From: Escherichia coli
GTDB lineage: Bacteria > Pseudomonadota > Gammaproteobacteria > Enterobacterales > Enterobacteriaceae
Length of the DNA: 64,000 nt
Reading direction: 5' to 3' (one strand)
NCBI RefSeq assembly: GCF_003018255.1
Contig: NZ_CP027440.1
In this document: positions 3,661-63,137 of the stretch, in pieces
Numbering within the stretch: position 1 is the first letter of the stretch
Layout of the letters: the number at the start of each line of letters is the position of its first letter
The notes under the pieces: generated by a model
Told to the model about the DNA's origin: nothing
The model's database searches: none
What the model saw: the letters and a program-made list of their open reading frames with translations, nothing else
Position numbers and translations under genes: made by a program

Positions 3661-3884
3661 TAGTGAGAAGACTTATAGTGCTAATGTGAAACTATAAATC
3701 ATCGGTACAATCCCTGATTTTATTGTTGACATTTCATTTATGCCGACTATTTATATGGTATACTTGTTGAATTATCTTAAAGGAAGCTCAAATTTTCTTA
3801 TTTTGATTGAGAAAATGAGATGATGCCTTATGTCTGTATTACTACAGGGAGAAGGGAAATGCTTCATTGCAAAGGGAATAATCT

Positions 3885-4499
3885 ATGAACGCAATAATTA
3901 TTGATGACCATCCTCTTGCTATCGCAGCAATTCGTAATTTATTGATCAAAAACGATATTGAAATCTTAGCGGAGTTGACTGAAGGGGGAAGTGCCGTTCA
4001 GCGGGTGGAAACACTTAAACCTGATATCGTCATCATTGATGTCGATATCCCCGGAGTTAACGGTATCCAGGTGTTAGAAACGCTGAGGAAGCGCCAATAT
4101 AGCGGAATTATTATTATCGTCTCCGCTAAAAATGACCATTTTTACGGGAAACATTGTGCTGATGCTGGCGCTAATGGTTTCGTGAGTAAAAAAGAAGGCA
4201 TGAACAATATCATTGCAGCTATTGAAGCTGCAAAAAATGGCTACTGCTATTTCCCCTTCTCTCTCAACCGGTTTGTTGGAAGTTTAACGTCCGACCAGCA
4301 AAAACTCGACTCCTTATCGAAACAAGAAATTAGTGTCATGCGGTATATTCTTGATGGCAAGGATAATAATGACATTGCTGAAAAAATGTTCATCAGCAAC
4401 AAAACTGTCAGCACTTATAAAAGTCGCTTGATGGAAAAATTAGAATGCAAATCACTGATGGATCTTTACACATTCGCACAACGTAACAAAATCGGCTAA
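3885..4499 (+). CDS. evgA: Response regulator EvgA (receiver domain plus LuxR-type HTH)
   Basis: 204-aa ORF; receiver motifs (IIIDDHP, DIVIIDVDIPG) and C-terminal HTH (ISNKTVSTYKSRLMEKL); AAGGGA Shine-Dalgarno upstream. Confidence 0.95.
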   Translation: MNAIIIDDHPLAIAAIRNLLIKNDIEILAELTEGGSAVQRVETLKPDIVIIDVDIPGVNGIQVLETLRKRQYSGIIIIVSAKNDHFYGKHCADAGANGFVSKKEGMNNIIAAIEAAKNGYCYFPFSLNRFVGSLTSDQQKLDSLSKQEISVMRYILDGKDNNDIAEKMFISNKTVSTYKSRLMEKLECKSLMDLYTFAQRNKIG

Positions 4500-18798: not shown

Positions 18799-20496
18799 GT
18801 GCACGAAATATTCAACATGCTGCTGGCGGTCTTCGATCGGGCAGCGTTAATGCTTATCTGCCTGTTCTTTCTCATCCGTATCCGTCTGTTTCGCGAACTG
18901 TTGCACAAGTCGGCGCACTCCCCAAAAGAGTTGCTCGCCGTTACCGCCATTTTCTCGCTGTTCGCCCTGTTCAGCACCTGGTCCGGCGTTCCTGTAGAAG
19001 GTTCGCTGGTGAACGTACGTATTATCGCGGTGATGTCAGGCGGGATTCTGTTTGGCCCGTGGGTGGGCATCATTACCGGCGTGATTGCGGGTATTCACCG
19101 TTATTTAATTGATATCGGTGGCGTGACGGCGATCCCCTGCTTTATCACCAGCATTCTGGCGGGTTGTATATCGGGCTGGATCAACCTGAAAATCCCCAAA
19201 GCACAGCGCTGGCGCGTCGGTATTCTCGGCGGCATGTTGTGTGAAACGTTGACCATGATTCTGGTGATTGTCTGGGCACCAACTACCGCATTGGGGATCG
19301 ATATCGTCTCTAAAATCGGGATTCCAATGATCCTCGGCAGCGTCTGTATCGGCTTTATTGTGTTGCTGGTACAAAGTGTTGAGGGCGAAAAAGAGGCCAG
19401 CGCCGCGCGGCAGGCCAAGCTGGCGCTGGATATCGCCAACAAAACGCTGCCGCTGTTTCGCCATGTCAATAGCGAGTCATTACGCAAGGTCTGCGAAATT
19501 ATCCGCGATGACATTCACGCTGACGCGGTGGCAATCACCAATACCGATCATGTGCTGGCCTACGTTGGCGTGGGTGAACATAACTATCAGAATGGCGATG
19601 ACTTCATTAGCCCGACTACCCGCCAGGCGATGAATTATGGAAAAATCATCATTAAAAACAATGATGAAGCCCACCGCACACCAGAGATTCATTCCATGCT
19701 GGTGATCCCATTGTGGGAGAAAGGCGTTGTGACCGGAACGCTGAAAATTTACTACTGCCACGCGCATCAGATAACCTCGTCATTACAGGAAATGGCGGTC
19801 GGTCTGTCACAAATCATCTCCACGCAACTGGAAGTTTCGCGCGCTGAGCAGCTGCGTGAAATGGCAAATAAGGCAGAGCTTCGCGCCCTGCAAAGCAAAA
19901 TTAATCCCCATTTCCTGTTTAACGCTTTGAACGCTATTTCATCGTCAATCCGTCTGAATCCGGATACCGCTCGCCAGCTGATCTTTAATCTGTCGCGTTA
20001 TCTGCGCTATAACATTGAATTAAAAGACGATGAGCAAATCGATATCAAAAAAGAGCTGTATCAAATTAAAGACTATATTGCCATTGAGCAGGCCCGCTTT
20101 GGCGACAAGCTGACGGTTATCTATGATATTGATGAAGAGGTGAATTGCTGCATTCCCAGCCTGCTGATCCAGCCGTTGGTGGAAAACGCCATTGTCCACG
20201 GTATCCAGCCTTGCAAAGGTAAAGGCGTTGTCACCATCAGCGTTGCAGAGTGCGGTAATCGGGTACGCATTGCGGTGCGGGATACCGGGCACGGCATCGA
20301 TCCAAAGGTGATTGAGCGGGTCGAAGCGAACGAAATGCCGGGCAATAAAATTGGCCTGCTGAATGTCCATCATCGCGTGAAGTTATTGTATGGCGAGGGG
20401 CTGCATATCCGCCGCCTGGAACCAGGAACGGAAATTGCGTTTTACATTCCTAACCAACGCACCCCTGTCGCCTCACAGGCTACGTTATTGCTTTGA
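18799..20496 (+). CDS. ypdA: LytS-type sensor histidine kinase
   Basis: 565-aa ORF; N-terminal multi-TM domain, GAF-like middle, His-kinase motif [10 protein letters not shown] and ATPase domain; a GTG at 18796 could be the true start. Confidence 0.9.
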
Positions 20497-20510
20497 GCCG
20501 GAGTGATATT

Positions 20511-21245
20511 GTGAAAGTCATCATTGTTGAAGACGAATTCCTGGCACAACAGGAACTGAGCTGGCTAATTAAAGAGCACAGCCAGATGGAGATTGTCGGC
20601 ACCTTTGACGACGGTCTGGACGTGTTGAAGTTTTTGCAGCATAACCGCGTCGACGCCATTTTTCTGGATATCAATATTCCGTCGCTGGATGGTGTGTTAC
20701 TGGCACAAAACATCAGCCAGTTCGCCCATAAACCGTTTATTGTGTTTATCACCGCGTGGAAAGAACATGCGGTAGAAGCGTTTGAACTGGAGGCGTTTGA
20801 CTACATTCTCAAACCGTATCAGGAGTCACGCATTACCGGGATGCTGCAAAAACTGGAAGCAGCCTGGCAGCAACAGCAGACCAGCAGTACGCCTGCCGCG
20901 ACGGTAACGCGTGAGAATGACACCATTAATCTGGTGAAAGATGAGCGAATCATCGTCACGCCAATTAACGATATCTATTACGCCGAAGCGCACGAGAAAA
21001 TGACCTTTGTCTATACGCGGCGTGAATCCTACGTAATGCCGATGAACATTACCGAATTTTGCAGCAAACTGCCGCCATCGCATTTTTTCCGCTGCCATCG
21101 CTCATTTTGTGTCAATCTGAACAAAATCCGCGAGATCGAACCGTGGTTTAATAACACCTATATTCTGCGGCTGAAAGATCTGGATTTTGAAGTGCCGGTC
21201 AGCCGCAGCAAAGTTAAAGAATTCCGCCAGTTAATGCATCTTTAA
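20511..21245 (+). CDS. ypdB: LytTR-family response regulator
   Basis: Receiver domain (KVIIVEDEF...DAIFLDINIP) plus LytTR DNA-binding domain; GTG start with GGAG 8 nt upstream; ORF-track start at 20493 uses an unlikely TTG that overlaps the ypdA stop. Confidence 0.88.
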   Translation: MKVIIVEDEFLAQQELSWLIKEHSQMEIVGTFDDGLDVLKFLQHNRVDAIFLDINIPSLDGVLLAQNISQFAHKPFIVFITAWKEHAVEAFELEAFDYILKPYQESRITGMLQKLEAAWQQQQTSSTPAATVTRENDTINLVKDERIIVTPINDIYYAEAHEKMTFVYTRRESYVMPMNITEFCSKLPPSHFFRCHRSFCVNLNKIREIEPWFNNTYILRLKDLDFEVPVSRSKVKEFRQLMHL

Positions 21246-24637: not shown

Positions 24638-25675
24638 TCATCTGAAATCCGTCAGTTGAACAACCGTCTCACGCGTAAGACGTTGAATAAGGGCAGATAA
24701 AAGCTGCTGCATCTGCAAAATGTCACGGCAATCGGCAATCGATGCGGCGCAATGTCCGTGGCGGGTGGCAGGCCCCATCACCACTGTGGGTACGCCAGTG
24801 CCGGTTAAGTGCACCGCCCCACCGTCCGTGCCACCGTTGCTGAACATATCCGCCTGCAACGGCACGCCAATTTCTGCCGCCACGGTTTCAATCCACGCGG
24901 TAAGTTTTGGCGGCGCAATCAGCGATTTATCGCTTAACACCAGCATCGGCCCGTTACCAATCTGACGATGGTTAGCCGCGCCATAATCAAAGTTTTTCGC
25001 CCAGCAGGCGGTATCAAGCACAATGGCGACGTCCGGCGACACCGCGCGGGTGGCAGTTTGCCCGCCGCGTAATCCCACCTCTTCGCTGGAACTTGCCACC
25101 AGCCACACCTCCGCAGGCAGTTCGGCGTCGTGCAGCTCACGTAGTAACGTCACCAGCAGATAGCAACCGAGGCGATCATCAAAGGCTTTCCCCATCACCC
25201 GCTGGTGAGGGAGAACCTGAAAAGTTGTATCAAAGGTGACGCGATCGCCTGGACGAATTCCCGCCTGCATCACTTCGTCATACGAGCGCGCACCAATGTC
25301 CACGCGTATGGTGCTGACGTCATTCCCCTGCCGGTCGCCGTCAAGCAGGCCTGGAATTTTGCACTCTTCACGGGTAGTGATACGCACCGACTGAAGCTGG
25401 CGGGCAGCCATGCGTACATTGCCAACCGGCAACACATCGATCGCCCCTTCGCGGGAGATGCTGCGCACCATAAATCCCACTTCGTCCATATGCGCACAGA
25501 TCATCACCTTCGGACCTGTCGACTCATTGAGTCGGATCAGCACCGATCCCAGCCCATCAAATCGCACTTCTTTTTGCAGGCGATCCGCTTCTTCCAGCAG
25601 GATCTGCCGTACTTCCTGTTCCGAGGAGGCGATCGCATCTGCCTCGCTCAACGCTTTTAATAACGATAAATCCAT
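24638..25675 (-). CDS. ypdE: M42-family aminopeptidase
   Basis: 345-aa ORF embedded between fryA and ypdF. Confidence 0.88.
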
Positions 25676-31479: not shown

Positions 31480-31590
<111 letters not shown>

Positions 31591-31595
31591 TTCAA

Positions 31596-32843
<1,248 letters not shown>

Positions 32844-32846
32844 CTA

Positions 32847-32868
32847 AAACATAGCCTTTGCTATGTTT
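32847..32868. promoter_or_regulatory. MntR-type operator palindrome in mntH promoter
   Basis: AAACATAGC-CTTT-GCTATGTTT, perfect 9-bp arms, 13 bp upstream of mntH start codon. Confidence 0.7.
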
Positions 32869-32883
32869 CATGCTATGTCAAAC

Positions 32884-46782: not shown

Positions 46783-48807
<2,025 letters not shown>

Positions 48808-48812
48808 TCAAT

Positions 48813-48838
48813 GCTAAAAACCCCCGACAAGCGGGGGT
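48813..48838 (-). terminator. Intrinsic terminator after zipA
   Basis: Minus strand: CCCCCGC-TTGT-CGGGGG followed by TTTTT. Confidence 0.7.
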
Positions 48839-48868
48839 TCGAAGAGGAGTTAATTTGCCTTAAGTGTA

Positions 48869-55883: not shown

Positions 55884-55949
<66 letters not shown>

Positions 55950-55974
55950 CACAAAACAAGGATAAGGTAATTCA

Positions 55975-56343
55975 ATGAAGAAAATCATTTGTCTGGTCAT
56001 TACGCTGCTAATGACACTCCCCGTTTACGCGAAGTTAACTGCCCATGAAGAAGCCCGTATCAACGCCATGCTGGAGGGATTAGCACAGAAAAAGGATTTG
56101 ATATTTGTGCGTAACGGCGATGAACATACCTGCGATGAAGCGGTTTCCCACCTGCGTCTGAAGCTCGGCAATACCCGTAACCGCATTGACACTGCCGAGC
56201 AGTTTATTGATAAGGTAGCCTCGTCGTCATCGATTACCGGGAAGCCGTATATCGTGAAGATGCCCGGTAAAAGCGATGAGAACGCACAACCTTTTTTACA
56301 TGCGCTGATTGCGCAGACGGATAAAACGGTGCCTGCGCAATAA
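55975..56343 (+). CDS. yfeK: Small secreted protein of unknown function
   Basis: 122-aa ORF with signal peptide ([19 protein letters not shown]); divergent from pdxK. Confidence 0.82.
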
Positions 56344-56345
56344 TC

Positions 56346-57257
56346 TTAAATCCCCGCCCCCTGGCTAAAATGCTCTTCCCCAAACACCCCGGTAGAAAGG
56401 TAGCGATCGCCGCGATCGCAGATGATCGCCACAACCACCGCGCCGGGGTTAGCTTTTGCCACGCGCAGTGCTCCGGCAACCGCGCCGCCGGAGCTGACGC
56501 CACAGAATATTCCTTCCCGCACTGCCAGCTCGCGCATGGTGTTTTCCGCATCGCGCTGATGAATATCCAGCACTTCATCCACCAGCGAAGCGTTGAAAAT
56601 CCCTGGCAGATATTCCGCAGGCCAGCGGCGAATGCCGGGAATGCTACTGCCCTCTTCCGGCTGCAGGCCAACAATGGTCACCGGTTTGGATTGTTCGCGC
56701 ATAAAGCGTGACACACCGGTAATGGTGCCGGTCGTCCCCATACTGGAGACAAAATGCGTAATGCGCCCGCCAGTTTGCTGCCAGATTTCCGGCCCGGTGG
56801 TGGTGTAATGGGCGAAGGGATTATCAGGATTATTGAACTGATCGAGCAGCTTTCCTTCACCACGATTGGCCATCTCCAGCGCCAGATCGCGCGCGCCTTC
56901 CATGCCCTGCTCTTTGGTGACAAGAATCAGTTCCGCACCGTATGTCAGCATCGCTGCACGGCGCTCCTGGCTCATGTTGTCGGGCATCAGCAATTTCATG
57001 CGATAGCCTTTAAGCGCGGCAATCATTGCCAGCGCAATGCCGGTGTTACCACTGGTGGCTTCGATCAGCACGTCACCCGGTTTAATTTCCCCGCGCTTTT
57101 CCGCCTCAACGATCATCGAAAGTGCCGCACGATCTTTTACCGAACCTGCCGGGTTATTGCCTTCCAGTTTCAACCAGACTTCACTGCCGTTATTCGGCCC
57201 CATTCGCTGCAACTTCACCAGAGGCGTATTGCCAATTGTTTGTTCTAATGTACTCAC
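56346..57257 (-). CDS. cysM: O-acetylserine/thiosulfate sulfhydrylase B (cysteine synthase B)
   Basis: 303-aa ORF; PLP-lysine motif (NPAGSVKDRAA); ends ...HFSQGAGI. Confidence 0.95.
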   Translation of the reverse strand: MSTLEQTIGNTPLVKLQRMGPNNGSEVWLKLEGNNPAGSVKDRAALSMIVEAEKRGEIKPGDVLIEATSGNTGIALAMIAALKGYRMKLLMPDNMSQERRAAMLTYGAELILVTKEQGMEGARDLALEMANRGEGKLLDQFNNPDNPFAHYTTTGPEIWQQTGGRITHFVSSMGTTGTITGVSRFMREQSKPVTIVGLQPEEGSSIPGIRRWPAEYLPGIFNASLVDEVLDIHQRDAENTMRELAVREGIFCGVSSGGAVAGALRVAKANPGAVVVAIICDRGDRYLSTGVFGEEHFSQGAGI

Positions 57258-57280
57258 GATCTATGTCCATACGTGGTGTT

Positions 57281-57317
57281 GCCTGATGCGACGCTTGCGC
57301 GTCTTATCAGGCCTACA
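57281..57317. repeat. REP element between cysM and cysA
   Basis: GCCTGATGCGACGCTTGCGCGTCTTATCAGGCCTACA, the same family as the units at 31480-31590. Confidence 0.85.
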
Positions 57318-57390
57318 GGTTACAAACCTTGCCATTAAAAAGCCCGGATCGCGGGAAGCGCCTCCGGGCGTTTAACATTCACTCAACCTA

Positions 57391-58488
57391 TCAGGCGCTT
57401 TGTGCGAGAGCAAGTTCCTCATCGCGGGTTTCAATACGCTCGTCGCCGTTATACAGCCGCGCATGTTGCAGACCAACGAATAAACGCTCGCCACGCTGCG
57501 GGGCATCGTCGCCATGCATCACAACCGTCAGCGGTTCGTTGTACCACCCCAGCGGCTGCACGACTAATTGGGTGTAGTGGCCTTTCGGGCTGGCTTCCAG
57601 TACCTGTACCGGCAGCGGCGAATCGAGGCTGGTACGGCGGCTGATATCCACTTCCCACGGGCGCAGGAAGAGATCCACCGGCCCCTGATAAGCAGGTGTG
57701 TAGCCCAGCGGCCAGCGATGTGCGCCAACATGGAACTGCCCGCCGCGAATGGTTCCCTGCAGGCGGTTCACTTCGCCCATAAATTCGAGCACAAAGCGGG
57801 TCGCTGGTTCGCGCCATACCTGATCCGGCGCATCAGCCTGCTCGATATTGCCCTGGCTCATCACCACTACACGATCGGCTACTTCGGTCGCTTCTTCCTG
57901 GTCATGGGTCACGAATACGCTGGTAAATTTCAGTTCTTCATGCAGTTGACGCAACCAGCGACGCAGCTCTTTACGCACCTGCGCATCCAGCGCGCCAAAC
58001 GGTTCATCAAGCAGCAGAATTTGCGGTTCCACAGCCAGCGCACGCGCCAGCGCCACGCGCTGTTTCTGCCCGCCGGAAAGCTGTGCCGGATAACGATCCG
58101 CCAGATGCGCAAGCTGGACCATCTCCAGCAATTTTGTCACTTTCGCTTTGATGGCTGCGGCATTCGGGCGCTCGCGACGCGGCAGCACCGTCAGGCCGAA
58201 AGCGATATTGTCGAATACCGTCATATGGCGGAACAGCGCGTAATGCTGAAACACGAAACCGACTTTACGATCGCGCGCATGCAGGCGGCTGACGTCGGTG
58301 CCGTGGAAGCGAATATGCCCGCTGGTTTGATGCTCCAGCCCGGCGATAATCCGCAGCAGCGTGGTTTTCCCGGAACCGGACGGCCCCAGCAACGCGACCA
58401 TCTGACCAGAAGGAATATCCAGCGAGATATCGTTCAGCACCTGGGTGCGACCAAAAGACTTCTTAATATTGGCAATCTCAATGCTCAT
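57391..58488 (-). CDS. cysA: Sulfate/thiosulfate ABC transporter ATP-binding subunit
   Basis: 365-aa ORF; Walker A (GPSGSGKTT), ABC signature ([15 protein letters not shown]), Walker B (LLLDEPF). Confidence 0.96.
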
Positions 58489-59353
58489 GATGTTCCTCCT
58501 GCTGCGCGCGTTTTTCCTGATTCTCCAGGCGCCACTGCAACATACTCTTTAAAAACAGGGTGATAATCGCCATCAGCGTCAACAACGCAGCGGCGGTAAA
58601 GGAGCCGACGGTGTTGTAGTCCTGCTCCAGCAATTCAATCTGTAGCGGCAGCGAAAGTGTTTCGCCGCGAATCGAGCCGGAAACCACCGACACCGCGCCA
58701 AACTCGCCAATTGCGCGGGCGTTGGTCAGCACCACGCCGTAAAGCAGCGCCCAGCGGATGTTCGGCAGCGTGACGCGACGGAACATCTGCCAGCCGGACG
58801 CGCCAAGTAAAATCGCCGCTTCGTCTTCCTGGCTGCCCTGACTTAACATTACCGGTACCAGTTCGCGCACCACAAACGGACACGTCACGAAGATGGTGAC
58901 CAGCACCATACCCGGCCAGGAGAACATAATTTGCAGATTATGTTCATCCAGCCAGCCGCCCAGCGGGCCGTTAGAGCCGTAGAACAGCAGATACACCAGA
59001 CCAGCAACCACCGGCGACACGGCAAACGGAATGTCCAGCAGCGTCAGCAATAGCTGGCGTCCGGGGAAGTTAAAGCGCGTCACCAGCCAGGCCAGCAGAA
59101 TGCCGAACACCAGGTTTACCGGTACGGCAATCAGCGCGATCATCACCGTCAGCCAGATGGCGTGCAGCATGTCCGGATCGGCCAGATTTTGTAACACCGG
59201 CATCAGTCCTTTGCTGAACGCCTGTACGAAGATATAAATCATCGGCACCAGCAGGATGAACGCCGATACCAGCATCCCGATGCCAATCAGAAACCATTTG
59301 CCCCAGTTAATCGGGCGCGCGTCATAACGCTTCAATTGTGTCACTTCCGCCAT
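58478..59353 (-). CDS. cysW: Sulfate/thiosulfate ABC transporter permease
   Basis: 291-aa membrane ORF; 3' end overlaps cysA start by 11 nt. Confidence 0.95.
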
Positions 59354-60186
59354 TAATGACCTACCACACGCCGACCAAAGCGACTTTGCAGAGTGTTAAT
59401 TGAGAACAGCAACAGCAGCGATGCCGCGAGGATCACCGAGGCAATCGCGCTCGCCGCCGGGTAATCAAACTCCTGTAAGCGAACAAAGATCATCAGCGAC
59501 GTCACTTCTGTTTTCCAGGCGATATTCCCGGCGATAAAAATCACCGCGCCAAACTCACCGAGGCTGCGGGTAAACGACAGCGCCACACCCGCCACCAGCG
59601 CCGGAGATAGTTCCGGCAGCACCACTTTGCGAAAACTCTGCCAGCGTGTTGCGCCGAGCGTTTCTGCCGCCTCTTCATATTCCGGGCCTAACTCTTCCAG
59701 CACCGGCTGCACGGTGCGCACCACAAACGGAATGCTGGTAAAGGCCATCGCCACCGCAATCCCCAGCCAGGTATAGGTGACTTTGATATCAAACTTCGCC
59801 AGCCATTCACCGTAAAAACCGTTCACGGAAAAGAGCGAGGCCAGCGTTAAACCGGCGACTGCCGTTGGCAGCGCAAAGGGTAAATCCATCAGCGCATCAA
59901 GCAGCGTGCGACCCGGAAAGCGATAGCGGGTTAAGATCCACGCCATCAGCAGACCGAAAACGCCGTTAAAAATCGATGCCACAAACGCCGACAGCAGCGT
60001 CACTTTATAGGCTGCGACCACCTGCGGGTTGGTGATCACCTCCCAGTACTGCGCCCAGCTCATCTGGGCCAGTTGCATCACCAGCGCGGAGAGCGGCAGC
60101 AGCAAAATCAGGCACACAAACAGCAGACTGGTGCCGAGGCTTAAGGTAAAGCCCGGCAGCACGCGTCTTGAAGAAACTGCAAACAT
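59353..60186 (-). CDS. cysU: Sulfate/thiosulfate ABC transporter permease
   Basis: 277-aa membrane ORF; stop overlaps cysW start. Confidence 0.95.
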   Translation of the reverse strand: MFAVSSRRVLPGFTLSLGTSLLFVCLILLLPLSALVMQLAQMSWAQYWEVITNPQVVAAYKVTLLSAFVASIFNGVFGLLMAWILTRYRFPGRTLLDALMDLPFALPTAVAGLTLASLFSVNGFYGEWLAKFDIKVTYTWLGIAVAMAFTSIPFVVRTVQPVLEELGPEYEEAAETLGATRWQSFRKVVLPELSPALVAGVALSFTRSLGEFGAVIFIAGNIAWKTEVTSLMIFVRLQEFDYPAASAIASVILAASLLLLFSINTLQSRFGRRVVGH

Positions 60187-61202
60187 TACTTACGCCCCGC
60201 CGCTAACAGCTTGTCTAACTCGCCGCCGCTGGTGAAGTGGGTTTTCATCACTTCCGGCCAGGAGCCAAATTTATCTTCCACGCGGAACAGCTCGGTCTGC
60301 GGGAATTTATCTTTCAGTTTGCCCATGACTTCCGGGTTATTTACGCGGTAGTAATAGTCGGTGATGATGGTTTGCGCCTGCGGGCTGTAGAGCCAGTTCA
60401 GGTAGGCTTTTGCCGCTTTTTCCGTGCCGTTGGCCTGTACGTTTTTATCCACCCACGCCACCGGGAATTCCGCCAGAATGTTGGTTTTCGGAATCACCAC
60501 TTCAAAGCCCTGCGCTTCATACTGTTTACGGATGTTGTTCACTTCCGACTCGAAGCTGATCAGCACATCGCCCAGGCCGCGCTCGGCAAAAGTGGTGGTC
60601 GCGCCACGACCGCCAGTATCGAACACTTCAACGTTTTTCAGGAACTGGGTCATAAACTGTTCGGTTTTGGCTTTATCACCACCGTCGGCTTTGTCCGCTG
60701 CGCCCCATGCCGCAAGGTAGGTATAACGCGCGTTACCCGACGTTTTCGGGTTCGGGAAAATCAGCTTCACGTCAGAGCGTACCAGGTCGTTCCAGTCGTG
60801 GATATTCTTTGGGTTGCCCTTACGCACCAGGAAGCCCATGGTGGAGTAGAACGGCGAGCTATTATTCGGCAGGCGCGACTGCCAGTCCGCTGGGATCAGC
60901 TTGCCTTTATCGTGCAGGATTTGTACGTCGGTCACCTGGTTATAAGTGACAACGTCGGCTTTTAAACCCTGCAAAATTGCCAGCGCCTGTTTTGATGATC
61001 CGGCATGAGATTGTTTAATCGTCAGTTTGTCGCCACCGTTATCTTTTGCCCATTGTTGCTCAAACGGCGGGTTCAGGGCGGCAAACAGCTCGCGGGAGAC
61101 GTCATAAGAACTGTTCAGCAGTTCCGTTGCCTGTACATGGCCCGCCAGTAGCAGAGAAGCAACCAGCACGAGTGAGTTCTTTTTCAGTAAGTTAACGGCC
61201 AT
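60186..61202 (-). CDS. cysP: Periplasmic thiosulfate-binding protein
   Basis: 338-aa ORF with signal peptide; stop overlaps cysU start. Confidence 0.95.
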
Positions 61203-61310
61203 TGCGCACCCTTATAAATTTAATGACTTTCTAATAGCCATCATATTTATAACGGACGTGAAAGGAGTAACGGTTTTATATACCGTTTGGTGATTTGGAA
61301 GTTGAAAAGG

Positions 61311-61347
61311 GAATAAGACGAAATCCTCCCCACAAATGCAGGGAGGA
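61311..61347 (-). terminator. Putative intrinsic terminator after ucpA
   Basis: Minus strand: TCCTCCC-TGCATTTGTG-GGGAGGA followed by a T-rich tract. Confidence 0.6.
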
Positions 61348-61359
61348 AACAGAGGTGAA

Positions 61360-62151
61360 TCAGATGCCGACGCTAACCGTCTCCGGCAGTGTGCTGCCGC
61401 CATCAATCACATTCTGTGTACCGGTTAAATAGCTGGATTCATCCGATGCGAGGAAGGCCGCCAGTTCGCCGACTTCCAGCGGATCGGCGAGGCGACGCAT
61501 CGGGATTGCTTTCGCCATTTCAGTCAGCACCGATTCTGGATCTTCCGGGTTCGACTGGCGGGCAATGCTTTCCGCCATTGGCGTGCGAACGTATCCAGGG
61601 CAGATGGCGTTAACGCGAATACCAGACTGCGCGTACTCCACCGCCAGCGATTTAGTCAGGCCAACAATCGCCGCTTTCGTTAAGGCGTACGCCGTTTCGC
61701 CCGGGTCTGCCACCATATCGCCAGTGACTGAAGACATCATCACAATCCGGCCATCTTTGCGGGCAATCATCTCCGGCAGCACCGCCTTCGTGACGTTCCA
61801 TACGCCTTTTATATTGATATCAATATGGAAATCGCGATCTTCATCGCTCATATCAAGGAAACTGCCCAGACGACAAACGCCTGCGTTATTCACCAGAATA
61901 TCAATGCGCCCTTCTTTTTCCTTAGCGCGCTTAATAGCTGCGGCGACCGACGCCGGGTCACGCACATCGGCGACAACCGCCGTACAGCGATGACCACGGC
62001 CACACAGTTCGTCCGCCAGCTTTTCGATCTCAGGGGAGATATCCAGCAAGATTAGGTTTGCGCCATGACGCGCAAAAGTTCTGGCAATTCCTTCGCCAAT
62101 TCCCTGCAATGCGCCCGTAATCAGTGCTGTCTTGCCCGTGAGTTTACCCAT
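61360..62151 (-). CDS. ucpA: Short-chain dehydrogenase/reductase (SDR) oxidoreductase
   Basis: Start chosen at MGKLTGKTALITGALQGIGEG (263 aa), containing the NAD(P)-binding Gly motif, rather than upstream ATG at 62217. Confidence 0.9.
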   Translation of the reverse strand: MGKLTGKTALITGALQGIGEGIARTFARHGANLILLDISPEIEKLADELCGRGHRCTAVVADVRDPASVAAAIKRAKEKEGRIDILVNNAGVCRLGSFLDMSDEDRDFHIDINIKGVWNVTKAVLPEMIARKDGRIVMMSSVTGDMVADPGETAYALTKAAIVGLTKSLAVEYAQSGIRVNAICPGYVRTPMAESIARQSNPEDPESVLTEMAKAIPMRRLADPLEVGELAAFLASDESSYLTGTQNVIDGGSTLPETVSVGI

Positions 62152-62279
62152 TTTAATGCTCTCCTTGTTAATACAGAGCGTTACACTCCATTCCCTCTGA
62201 AAATACAGGATAAACAAAATATTGCTGCGGATCAGCTCACTAATTCAGGAAAATCTCAATCCAGTCGCTGCTTTATGCA

Positions 62280-63137
62280 TCATTTCAGGCGTTGCGTTAG
62301 CTCACTGCTGCGCTCAATCATTTTCAATGACTCCACATCATTGAGTTGCACAAGGCCAACAAACAGTAAATCGGTAACAGAATTTTGCGCCGTGCGGGTG
62401 GACATCGACGAGCTGCGCCATTCGGTTTCGCCAGAAACGGTATCGAGGGTGTAATGCGCCAGCCGCCGCAGCGGGGAATCGGTTAATGAGGTAATGGCAA
62501 TCACCGTTGCCCCCTGCTTTCGCGCTGCCTCGGCGCACAAGACAATCTCTTTTTTACTGCCACTGTAAGAGATAGCGATTTGTACATCGCCTTTTTTTAG
62601 CGCCTGAGAAACGGTGGCTTGTACGTGGGTGTCGGCCTCACAGGCCACGCGATAACCAATTTTCATCAGTTTGAACGACAGATCGCGCCCCACCAGCGCC
62701 GACCCGCCCAGGCCCGTTATCTGGATAAACGGTGCTTTACTGATGACCTCAATGATTTTTTGCAGCCGCGCGTAGTCAAACAACGCGCAGGTTTGCTCCA
62801 GCGCCTGCTCTTTTTCGCGATTCAGTTTACGGGCAATCACTTCCAGCGAATCATCACTGGTAATCGAACTGTGCAGGTGCAGCGCCGTGGCATTCGTTTT
62901 CTCCCGGCTGGCACTGTATTCGCCAATTAACGCCATACGCAATTCAGTAAATCCTTGCGCGCCGAGCTTCTGGGCAAACTTCACAATACTCGACTGGCTG
63001 ATGCCGAGCTGTTTCGCCATCTTGCGCGAAGAGACGGATTTCAGCTCACTCACGTTGGCCCGCAGAAAGTCAGCAATTTTTTGCTCGTTCCCGGTAAATT
63101 CACTTTCCGCATTGCGTATTTTCGTCAGGTACAACAT
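62280..63137 (-). CDS. murR: RpiR-family repressor of MurNAc catabolism (HTH plus SIS domain)
   Basis: Start chosen at [14 protein letters not shown] (285 aa); divergent from murQ. Confidence 0.9.

Follow-up and report, generated by a model that had tools for sequence, protein, structure and literature searches.

Overlapping junctions within cysPUWA and a conserved hairpin ahead of cysM in the sulfate/thiosulfate importer operon of Escherichia coli

Differential expression mediated by REP elements or hairpins occurs inside the transporter operons malEFG and hisJQMP, and internal partial terminators are present in rplL-rpoB and rpsU-dnaG. Gene pairs that overlap form a second group of described systems. 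In E. coli, neighboring genes are most often spaced by overlaps of −4, −1 and −8 nt, and such overlaps are enriched in heteromeric complexes; among five native pairs tested, coupling was clear in three and partial (about 60%) in a fourth, whereas the overlapping pair bioBF was uncoupled, and coupling collapses at a spacing of ~20 nt (PMC6728339, PMC10666635).

Here we analyzed a 64,000-nt stretch of E. coli DNA (the window), in which the region of interest is the cysPUWAM operon, the known sulfate/thiosulfate importer operon, on the minus strand. Junctions and gene coordinates were read directly on that strand (Table 1). All five proteins passed curated NCBIfam cut-offs, four of them against equivalog models (CysU, 580.7 bits, cut-off 415; CysW, 619.1 bits, cut-off 442; CysA, 755.3 bits, cut-off 502; CysM, 555.5 bits, cut-off 394.2) and CysP against a subfamily model (723.7 bits, cut-off 308). 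Of 5,426 complete genomes of E. coli, 5,423 have the locus, and nucleotide identity is 95–99% with most genomes of the species. Long open reading frames antisense to cysA, cysP and cysM (e.g., 57568–58563) were taken as shadow ORFs of the coding strand. K-12 cysPUWAM (cysPTWAM; b2425–b2421) matches the window in its five genes and their order, and the intergenic distances of −1, −1, −11 and +133 nt are identical in the window, its closest genome and K-12 MG1655 (RefSeq annotation). The cysA–cysM gap is nearly identical to that of K-12 (168 of 171 aligned columns, hairpin and REP included). Unlike K-12, the window has no 146-bp dispersed repeat ahead of the cysP promoter; it also lacks yfeS together with a two-REP element downstream of cysM. 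The operon and its overlapping junctions are established and ordinary, as is translational coupling where genes overlap in this way, and confirmation of the annotation carries little significance beyond itself. The layout as a whole is probably best explained as cysPUWAM with coupled internal junctions and with cysM set apart after cysA.

Table 1. Features of the cysPUWAM region (window coordinates).
Feature	Position	Strand	Description	Evidence
cysP	60186..61202	-	thiosulfate/sulfate periplasmic binding protein, 338 aa	ORF, NCBIfam NF008106, RefSeq
cysU (cysT)	59353..60186	-	permease subunit, 277 aa	ORF, NF008208
cysW	58478..59353	-	permease subunit, 291 aa	ORF, NF008620
cysA	57391..58488	-	ATP-binding subunit, 365 aa	ORF, NF008105
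cysM	56346..57257	-	cysteine synthase B, 303 aa, GTG start	ORF, TIGR01138
cysP/cysU junction	60184..60188	-	TAATG, stop and start share one A (60186)	sequence
cysU/cysW junction	59351..59355	-	TAATG, 1-nt overlap (59353)	sequence
cysW/cysA overlap	58478..58488	-	ATGAGCATTGA, 11 nt	sequence
cysA Shine-Dalgarno AGGAGG	58495..58500	-	embedded in codons of the cysW C-terminal tail	sequence
cysA-cysM gap	57258..57390	-	133 nt	sequence
Intrinsic-terminator-like element	57337..57369	-	21 nt after cysA stop	RNA fold, custom score
REP element	57281..57316	-	GTAG-GCCTGATAAGACGCGCAAGCGTCGCATCAGGC, between hairpin and cysM ribosome-binding site	fold, Rfam, second copy
ucpA terminator-like hairpin	61324..61347	-	TCCTCCC...GGGAGGA and T-rich tail, right after ucpA stop	terminator scan, sequence
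cysP upstream region	61203..61323	-	expected CysB-dependent promoter and 5' UTR	K-12 identity

Transcription of cysPUWAM would begin at the cysP promoter, which lies downstream of the terminator of ucpA. The ucpA hairpin, which is the same in K-12, divides ucpA from the cys operon. The cysP upstream region is identical to the cysP-proximal portion of the K-12 intergenic region and presumably holds the CysB-dependent promoter, as for cysP in K-12 and Salmonella; a cysP Shine-Dalgarno, AAGGG, lies at about −11 to −7. The cys genes are absent from the SMRT-Cappable-seq supplements.

The overlaps described in an earlier note on this DNA were borne out within the operon. Direct reading and RefSeq agree that cysP/cysU (...CGT AAG TAATG TTT) and cysU/cysW (...GGT CAT TAATG GCG) each share one nucleotide between stop and start, and that cysW overlaps cysA by 11 nt, with the cysW TGA falling inside cysA codons 3–4. 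An SD-like GGTAGGT occurs within the last cysU codons, ahead of the cysU/cysW junction. The strong AGGAGG before cysA could allow independent initiation. Elsewhere in the window, the overlaps reported for emrK/emrY (TAATG at 2306) and ypdF/ypdE (TAATG at 25675) are also present, but the one claimed for ypdA/ypdB is absent: in both RefSeq annotations ypdB begins at GTG 20511, 14 nt past the ypdA TGA (20494–20496) and preceded by GGAG at 20500–20503. An upstream TTG (20493), which as the ypdB start would create a 4-nt overlap, is unsupported, and the annotated GTG with its GGAG is preferred.

For junction geometry, other Enterobacterales species supplied 77 usable loci. The cysP/cysU distance is −1 in 65 of them (0 in ten, −4 in one, +2 in one), cysU/cysW is −1 in 76 (+2 in one) and cysW/cysA is −11 in 76 (−4 in one), whereas the cysA–cysM spacer occurs in 36 different lengths, between 66 and 227 nt. 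The geometry is near-invariant even though the stop codon (TAA or TGA) and the codons closing cysP and cysU differ, and the AGGAG core before cysA is kept in almost all 77 species (CAGGAGC in one locus) while its flanking codons vary. Near-fixed geometries beside a freely ranging spacer indicate that the overlaps are under selection, which fits translational coupling, a known and common mechanism. The freely changing spacer next to frozen −1/−1/−11 distances thus serves as a clean internal control for overlap selection, of modest value.

Judging from the junction sequences, translational coupling is the most likely consequence of this layout. The mRNA junctions UAAUG, UAAUG and AUGAGCAUUGA put each downstream start codon within the footprint of the ribosome terminating the upstream gene. 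Ribosomes finishing cysP, cysU and cysW may then start again on the following cistron, or make its ribosome-binding site accessible, and membrane and ATPase subunits would thereby be produced together from a single mRNA. The two −1-nt junctions fall inside the −8 to +6 termination–reinitiation spacing class; cysW/cysA, at −11 nt, lies just outside the class for which reinitiation was measured. A literature search returned no experiment on translational coupling in cysPUWAM.

Relative amounts would be set by the strength of each cistron's own site: weak for cysU, moderate for cysW and strong for cysA. Predicted Shine-Dalgarno duplex energies against the 16S 3' end are −10.3 kcal/mol for cysA, about −6 for cysU and cysW and −3.0 for cysM in the window; the medians across species are −5.1 (cysP), −6.1 (cysU), −6.2 (cysW), −10.3 (cysA) and −3.1 kcal/mol (cysM). 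These strengths are unequal between cistrons and conserved across species, suggesting that the junctions link the cistrons without equalizing them. By analogy with type I importers in general, the core is expected to be CysU1:CysW1:CysA2, and Sbp, encoded elsewhere, is an alternative binding protein. The ranking of site strengths would fit, qualitatively, two CysA per transporter. No solved CysUWA structure was found; among relatives with solved structures, ModBC, PotABC and MalFGK2 are the nearest. The earlier note is right about gene identities, but its description of these genes as stoichiometric ABC-transporter subunits is too simple, as CysP is a soluble periplasmic binding protein outside the membrane complex and the Shine-Dalgarno strengths differ.

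Coupling would stop after cysA. Between this gene and cysM lies a GC-rich hairpin with a U-run, to which Escherichia adds a REP hairpin on the cysM side. The hairpin, GCCCGGAGGCGCTTCCCGCGATCCGGGC (57342–57369), is followed by TTTTT at 57337–57341; it has a ΔG of −17.7 kcal/mol and a d'Aubenton-Carafa-type score of +14.6, its sequence is the same in K-12, and folding of the entire gap gives z = −3.0 relative to shuffles. A terminator scan whose loop rule allows 3–8 nt missed the hairpin; folding and a custom score recovered it. An equivalent hairpin and T-run is found in 71 of 76 species, as against 1 of 380 shuffled spacers, and at least three unrelated stem sequences build it, the non-REP-like stems being of GCGGCC and GGCGGGA types. 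Bidirectional termination was rejected, since a T-run is missing from the hairpin on the plus strand.

The 133-nt gap does contain the REP that had been reported there. Its palindrome (57281–57312) has a near-identical second copy at 31480–31511, and the element is a ~35-nt imperfect palindrome, extragenic and repeated; a 5.5-kb query matches a median of five places per genome. Rfam yields a single, partial match, to naRNA4, a family derived from REP (E = 4e-4), with a score under the gathering threshold. Among the surveyed Enterobacterales, a REP at this position occurs in Escherichia loci only; the conserved feature of the gap is the GC hairpin with its T-run. The suggestion that cysM may be partly decoupled was reasonable, but it overlooked the more conserved of the two elements.

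The cysM start is GTG in 70 of 73 species, with a weak Shine-Dalgarno. With the preceding hairpin and U-run (and, in Escherichia, the REP), these features suggest that cysM is probably expressed at a lower level and partly independently, through read-through of a leaky terminator or past an mRNA-stability barrier. Converting Dataset EV9 of PMC8144880 roughly, with its values taken as mass fractions, puts CysM at about half the molar level of CysA. In an APEC lsrR deletion, cysM mRNA stayed level as that of cysUWA increased ~ninefold (PMC13393413). The conserved hairpin offers a concrete candidate explanation of why cysM can differ from cysUWA in expression data.

Compatible with this explanation, although less likely than not, is that the cysA hairpin is not a terminator: it may shield cysPUWA from 3' exonucleases, as REPs do, or serve as a "ribosome termination structure" and so keep ribosomes leaving cysA from influencing translation of cysM. 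Curated K-12 Term-seq tables (LB and M63-glucose; PMC7815308, Adams 2021), which keep strong peaks only and do not give the operon's expression level in those samples, list no RNA 3' end in the gap, and the U-tract is short (five U, then AA). The stem itself is REP-like in many genera (GCCGGGTAAGCG...CCCGGC), the Escherichia REP hairpin, which has no T-run, sits ~23 nt before the cysM GTG, the hairpin's place elsewhere, and stable structure just past stop codons is reported to lower reinitiation (PMC7518266; discussed in PMC12548453). However, the T-run is conserved together with the stem in those 71 of 76 species, including species with non-REP-like stems, which counts against a pure stability or insulation hairpin, for which a T-run would be unneeded.

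A more tentative extension of the terminator reading is that the hairpin and U-run are under selection as an attenuator within the operon, possibly a conditional one, by which the CysM : CysUWA ratio is set. Across Enterobacterales the hairpin is kept always just upstream of the weak, GTG-initiated cysM. On this reading, the Escherichia REP is an insertion between hairpin and cysM. A literature search, which did not extend to the original 1990 sequence papers, found no description of an attenuator-like element between cysA and cysM.

Coupling at the junctions has its own competitor, in which the overlaps are a by-product of genome compaction and of start and stop drift, with de novo initiation at each cistron. 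The uncoupled bioBF pair provides a precedent, and the strong conserved AGGAGG of cysA points the same way. The start sites of cysU, cysW and cysA likewise lie in unremarkable predicted structure (unfolding costs of 12.0–16.5 kcal/mol, within ~1 s.d. of shuffles), so the form of coupling that works through RNA unfolding gains no specific support here. Nevertheless, 65 to 76 of 77 species keep −1/−1/−11 despite free change in nearby codons, stop identity and the next spacer, four of the five tested native E. coli pairs were clearly or partially coupled, and the SD-like sequence of cysU is only weak; we regard the by-product account as improbable.

Internal promoters within cysP or cysA, driving cysUWA and/or cysM so that the genes are not one tight unit, are similarly improbable. 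They would accommodate the APEC lsrR deletion, in which cysUWA mRNA rose ~ninefold with cysP and cysM unchanged, so that a single promoter does not account for the response (PMC13393413). The proteome growth-response classes, which differ between CysA on the one hand and CysP, CysU and CysM on the other, also favor them. Against this, no sigma-70-like promoter was detected on either strand of 55900–61600, where 3.5 would be expected by chance (a scan uninformative for the CysB-dependent cysP promoter), the overlapping junctions leave no non-coding room, the T-run lies only 18–27 nt from the cysM start in most genera, so a cysM promoter would need to fire through the hairpin, and cysPUWAM is curated as one operon in K-12.

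Set beside the coupled overlapping pairs (Huber et al. 2019, 2023), cysPUWA resembles them in being co-directional genes for subunits of one complex, and the 1-nt stop/start overlap (TAATG) of its first two junctions is one of the commonest E. coli classes. It differs in that cysW/cysA, with 11 nt, exceeds in overlap the classes that are most frequent and have been tested (−4, −1, −8), that CysP lies outside the membrane complex, and that the cys coupling is predicted from sequence. With mal, his, rplL-rpoB and rpsU-dnaG the locus shares an intercistronic hairpin or REP between highly and weakly expressed cistrons. In mal and his that element follows the binding-protein gene, whereas in cys, where it is known from sequence, it follows the ATPase gene and precedes the gene for a metabolic enzyme.

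Five consecutive open reading frames on the minus strand encode a sulfate/thiosulfate ABC importer (CysP, CysU, also named CysT, CysW and CysA) and cysteine synthase B (CysM) at 56346–61202. All five proteins pass the curated NCBIfam cut-offs, and RefSeq annotates the same genes at the same relative coordinates in the closest genome and in E. coli K-12 MG1655 (K-12). Of 5,426 complete E. coli genomes, 5,423 match at least 80% of a 5.5-kb query spanning the locus. Among the 5,433 E. coli records that match 57000–62500, just 5 reach ≥99% identity; the best identity over the full query is 98.8% and the majority lie at 95–99%, indicating that the window belongs to a thinly sampled Escherichia lineage.

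Features of the cysPUWAM region and related elements in the window (Shine-Dalgarno strength, SD, is the predicted duplex energy with the 16S 3′ end)
Feature	Position	Strand	Length (aa)	NCBIfam score/cut-off (bits)	Model	SD (kcal/mol)	Remark
cysP	60186–61202	minus	338	723.7/308	subfamily	-5.1	
cysU/T	59353–60186	minus	277	580.7/415	equivalog	-6.1	
cysW	58478–59353	minus	291	619.1/442	equivalog	-6.2	SD GGTAGGT within cysU
cysA	57391–58488	minus	365	755.3/502	equivalog	-10.3	SD AGGAGG, 58495–58500, within variable cysW C-terminal tail
cysM	56346–57257	minus	303	555.5/394.2	equivalog	-3.0	GTG start; stop 56346–56348
cysW/cysA overlap	58478–58488						11 nt
Hairpin after cysA	57342–57369						T-run 57337–57341
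REP palindrome	57281–57312						second copy 31480–31511
Hairpin directly after ucpA	61324–61347						terminator-like; terminator scan
yfeK stop	56341–56343						
zipA-ligA spacer	48799–48868						terminator-like hairpin

The overlaps described in the earlier note (-1, -1 and -11 nt at cysP/cysU, cysU/cysW and cysW/cysA) and the 133-nt gap from the cysA TGA to the cysM GTG were exact in all four figures on the minus strand and are the same in K-12. Both 1-nt overlaps read TAATG: cysP ends in CGT AAG TAA and cysU begins on the final A, while cysU ends in GGT CAT TAA and cysW begins likewise. cysW closes with CAT CAT GAG CAT TGA and cysA opens with ATG AGC ATT GAG, ATGAGCATTGA being common to both genes. 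Each overlapping start is the earliest possible start codon of its reading frame, and the N-termini of 77 orthologues align there.

Junction geometry was compared across 80 loci of other Enterobacterales species (CysW identity 79–100%; genes placed by tblastn), 77 of which were usable. The cysP/cysU distance was -1 in 65 loci, 0 in 10 (the Citrobacter freundii group and two others), -4 in one and +2 in one; cysU/cysW was -1 in 76 and +2 in one, and cysW/cysA -11 in 76 and -4 in one. This geometry is kept despite species-to-species changes in the terminal codons of both cysP and cysU and in the identity of the stop (TAA or TGA); at cysU/cysW, 48 loci read TAATG and 29 TGATG. In the same species set, the adjacent cysA-cysM spacer, which serves as an internal control, took 36 distinct lengths between 66 and 227 nt. 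Fixed junctions beside so variable a spacer show that selection acts on the geometry of the junctions.

Spacings of -4, -1 and -8 are the commonest in E. coli, and 707 of 2,987 co-directional pairs lie between -8 and +6, a class in which subunits of heteromeric complexes are over-represented (PMC10666635). Among native E. coli overlapping pairs, three of five depend strongly on upstream translation and a fourth by ~60%, with bioBF as the uncoupled exception; coupling is nearly gone at a spacing of ~20 nt (PMC6728339, PMC10666635). Our literature search found no coupling measurement for cysPUWA; its overlaps belong to a type for which translational coupling is known, and from their anatomy and conservation we infer that these cistrons are probably coupled. 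Two mechanisms are debated: either the terminating ribosome itself reinitiates or scans, or the downstream site is unfolded (PMC12548453). Predicted structure at the cysU, cysW and cysA start sites was no stronger than in shuffled sequences, so the unfolding model gains no specific support here.

The junctions would tie the cistrons together, with the ratio set by the strength of each gene's own site. The strongest Shine-Dalgarno belongs to cysA, the subunit expected twice per transporter, and this inequality is conserved, the median duplex energies of the 77 species lying close to the window values. A CysU1:CysW1:CysA2 stoichiometry is likely by analogy with the family of type I importers; CysUWA itself has no solved structure, and its closest relatives with one are ModBC, PotABC and MalFGK2. 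The description of all four products as stoichiometric subunits therefore holds at best for CysU, CysW and CysA, CysP being a periplasmic binding protein outside the core.

Overlaps proposed elsewhere in the window fared unevenly. TAATG junctions were confirmed at emrK/emrY (2306) and ypdF/ypdE (25675), whereas ypdA (pyrS) and ypdB (pyrR) do not overlap: in the closest genome and K-12 the annotated ypdB GTG lies at 20511, 14 nt beyond the ypdA TGA, with GGAG at 20500–20503, 7 nt upstream. An upstream TTG (20493) giving a 4-nt overlap lacks annotation support. All four 1-nt overlaps (2306, 25675, 59353 and 60186) are TAATG and none TGATG. Two small overlapping frames are annotated in other genomes: a 14-aa ORF that overlaps the mntH start by 8 nt in the closest genome (window ~32827–32871), and the 9-aa evgL that overlaps evgA by 4 nt in K-12 (the region of window ~3859–3888).

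The REP reported in the cysA-cysM gap is present as the palindrome GCCTGATAAGACGCGCAAGCGTCGCATCAGGC, with a near-identical second copy elsewhere in the window; the REP-derived naRNA4 (Rfam) gave a partial, sub-threshold match. The gap also holds a separate and more conserved element that the earlier note leaves out: the hairpin GCCCGGAGGCGCTTCCCGCGATCCGGGC (ΔG -17.7 kcal/mol), 21 nt past the cysA stop and followed by TTTTT, a layout predicted to be that of an intrinsic terminator. The full gap, almost the same sequence in K-12, folds as these two hairpins (z = -3.0 versus shuffles). At a score above 10 on a d'Aubenton-Carafa-type scale, hairpin plus T-run was called in 71 of 76 species spacers versus 1 of 380 shuffled ones; in most of the other five, a hairpin was still recognisable on inspection, its T tail degraded or offset. 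At least three unrelated stem types occur (REP-like GCCCGG/GCCGGG, GCGGCC and GGCGGGA), so structure and position are conserved rather than sequence. Outside Escherichia, the T-run starts 18–27 nt before cysM in Enterobacteriaceae, 33–42 nt in most Erwiniaceae and 79 nt in one Pantoea locus; these short distances leave no space for a separate promoter downstream of the T-run. The REP of E. coli and E. albertii is inserted between the terminator-like hairpin and the cysM ribosome-binding site. The REP hairpin in Escherichia ends 23 nt before the cysM GTG, and elsewhere the terminator-like hairpin ends ~18–27 nt before it; a stable hairpin ~20 nt upstream of cysM, with or without a T-run, is common to all. 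Among other same-strand spacers tested in the window, zipA-ligA alone scored positive, with CCCCCGCTTGTCGGGGG plus TTTTT.

The most economical reading is that the hairpin after cysA acts as a leaky terminator or mRNA-stability barrier, which would lower cysM and partly uncouple it from cysPUWA. The cysM start is GTG in 70 of 73 species, with the weakest Shine-Dalgarno of the five genes. Support from expression data is indirect. CysM stands at about half the molar level of CysA by a rough conversion of proteome tables taken as mass fractions (PMC8144880), in which membrane subunits are scarcely detected. In an avian pathogenic E. coli lsrR deletion mutant, cysUWA mRNA rose about ninefold with cysM unchanged (PMC13393413); cysP was also unchanged, a pattern not explained by a single promoter. 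Against termination, curated K-12 Term-seq tables place none of their 3′ ends between cysA and cysM (PMC7815308), and the U-tract is short. A role in mRNA stability or as a 'ribosome termination structure', a published concept (PMC7518266), is a live alternative and compatible with a leaky terminator. Overall, the earlier note's observation holds except for ypdA/ypdB, and its interpretation is supported in part. The suggestion that cysM is partly decoupled is plausible, its cause better placed in the conserved terminator-like hairpin than in the REP alone.

The flanks differ from K-12 on both sides. Downstream of cysM, K-12 carries yfeS and a two-REP element (~960 bp); the window has neither, so that just 2 nt separate the convergent stop codons of yfeK and cysM. 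No terminator intervenes, and yfeK ends in VPAQ instead of VPAEGN. In K-12 a Rho-dependent termination region, weaker than the one in cysP described below, lies there, antisense to yfeS (PMC7815308, supplementary file 2). Upstream, ucpA and cysP are 157 nt apart, a stretch that matches the cysP-proximal part of the K-12 spacer without a difference. K-12 carries 146 bp more, absent from the window, at window 61318/61319, between the ucpA terminator and the cysP promoter. The full K-12 form occurs in 1,387 of 5,426 E. coli genomes (about a quarter), and the 146-bp element is a low-copy dispersed repeat (median 2, up to 5 places per genome, ~90–93% identity). In K-12 grown in LB, a strong Rho-dependent termination region lies 8 nt into cysP (PMC7815308, supplementary file 2), at K-12 2543521 on the minus strand (window ~61195; Rho score 17, p = 5.6e-46); DirectRNA-seq reads upstream/downstream were 273/15 without and 384/362 with bicyclomycin (PMC7815308). 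These data suggest that Rho keeps read-through or basal transcription out of the operon as long as it is uninduced. The five-gene locus itself is the classical cysPUWAM operon, a textbook system with all parts of known kinds.
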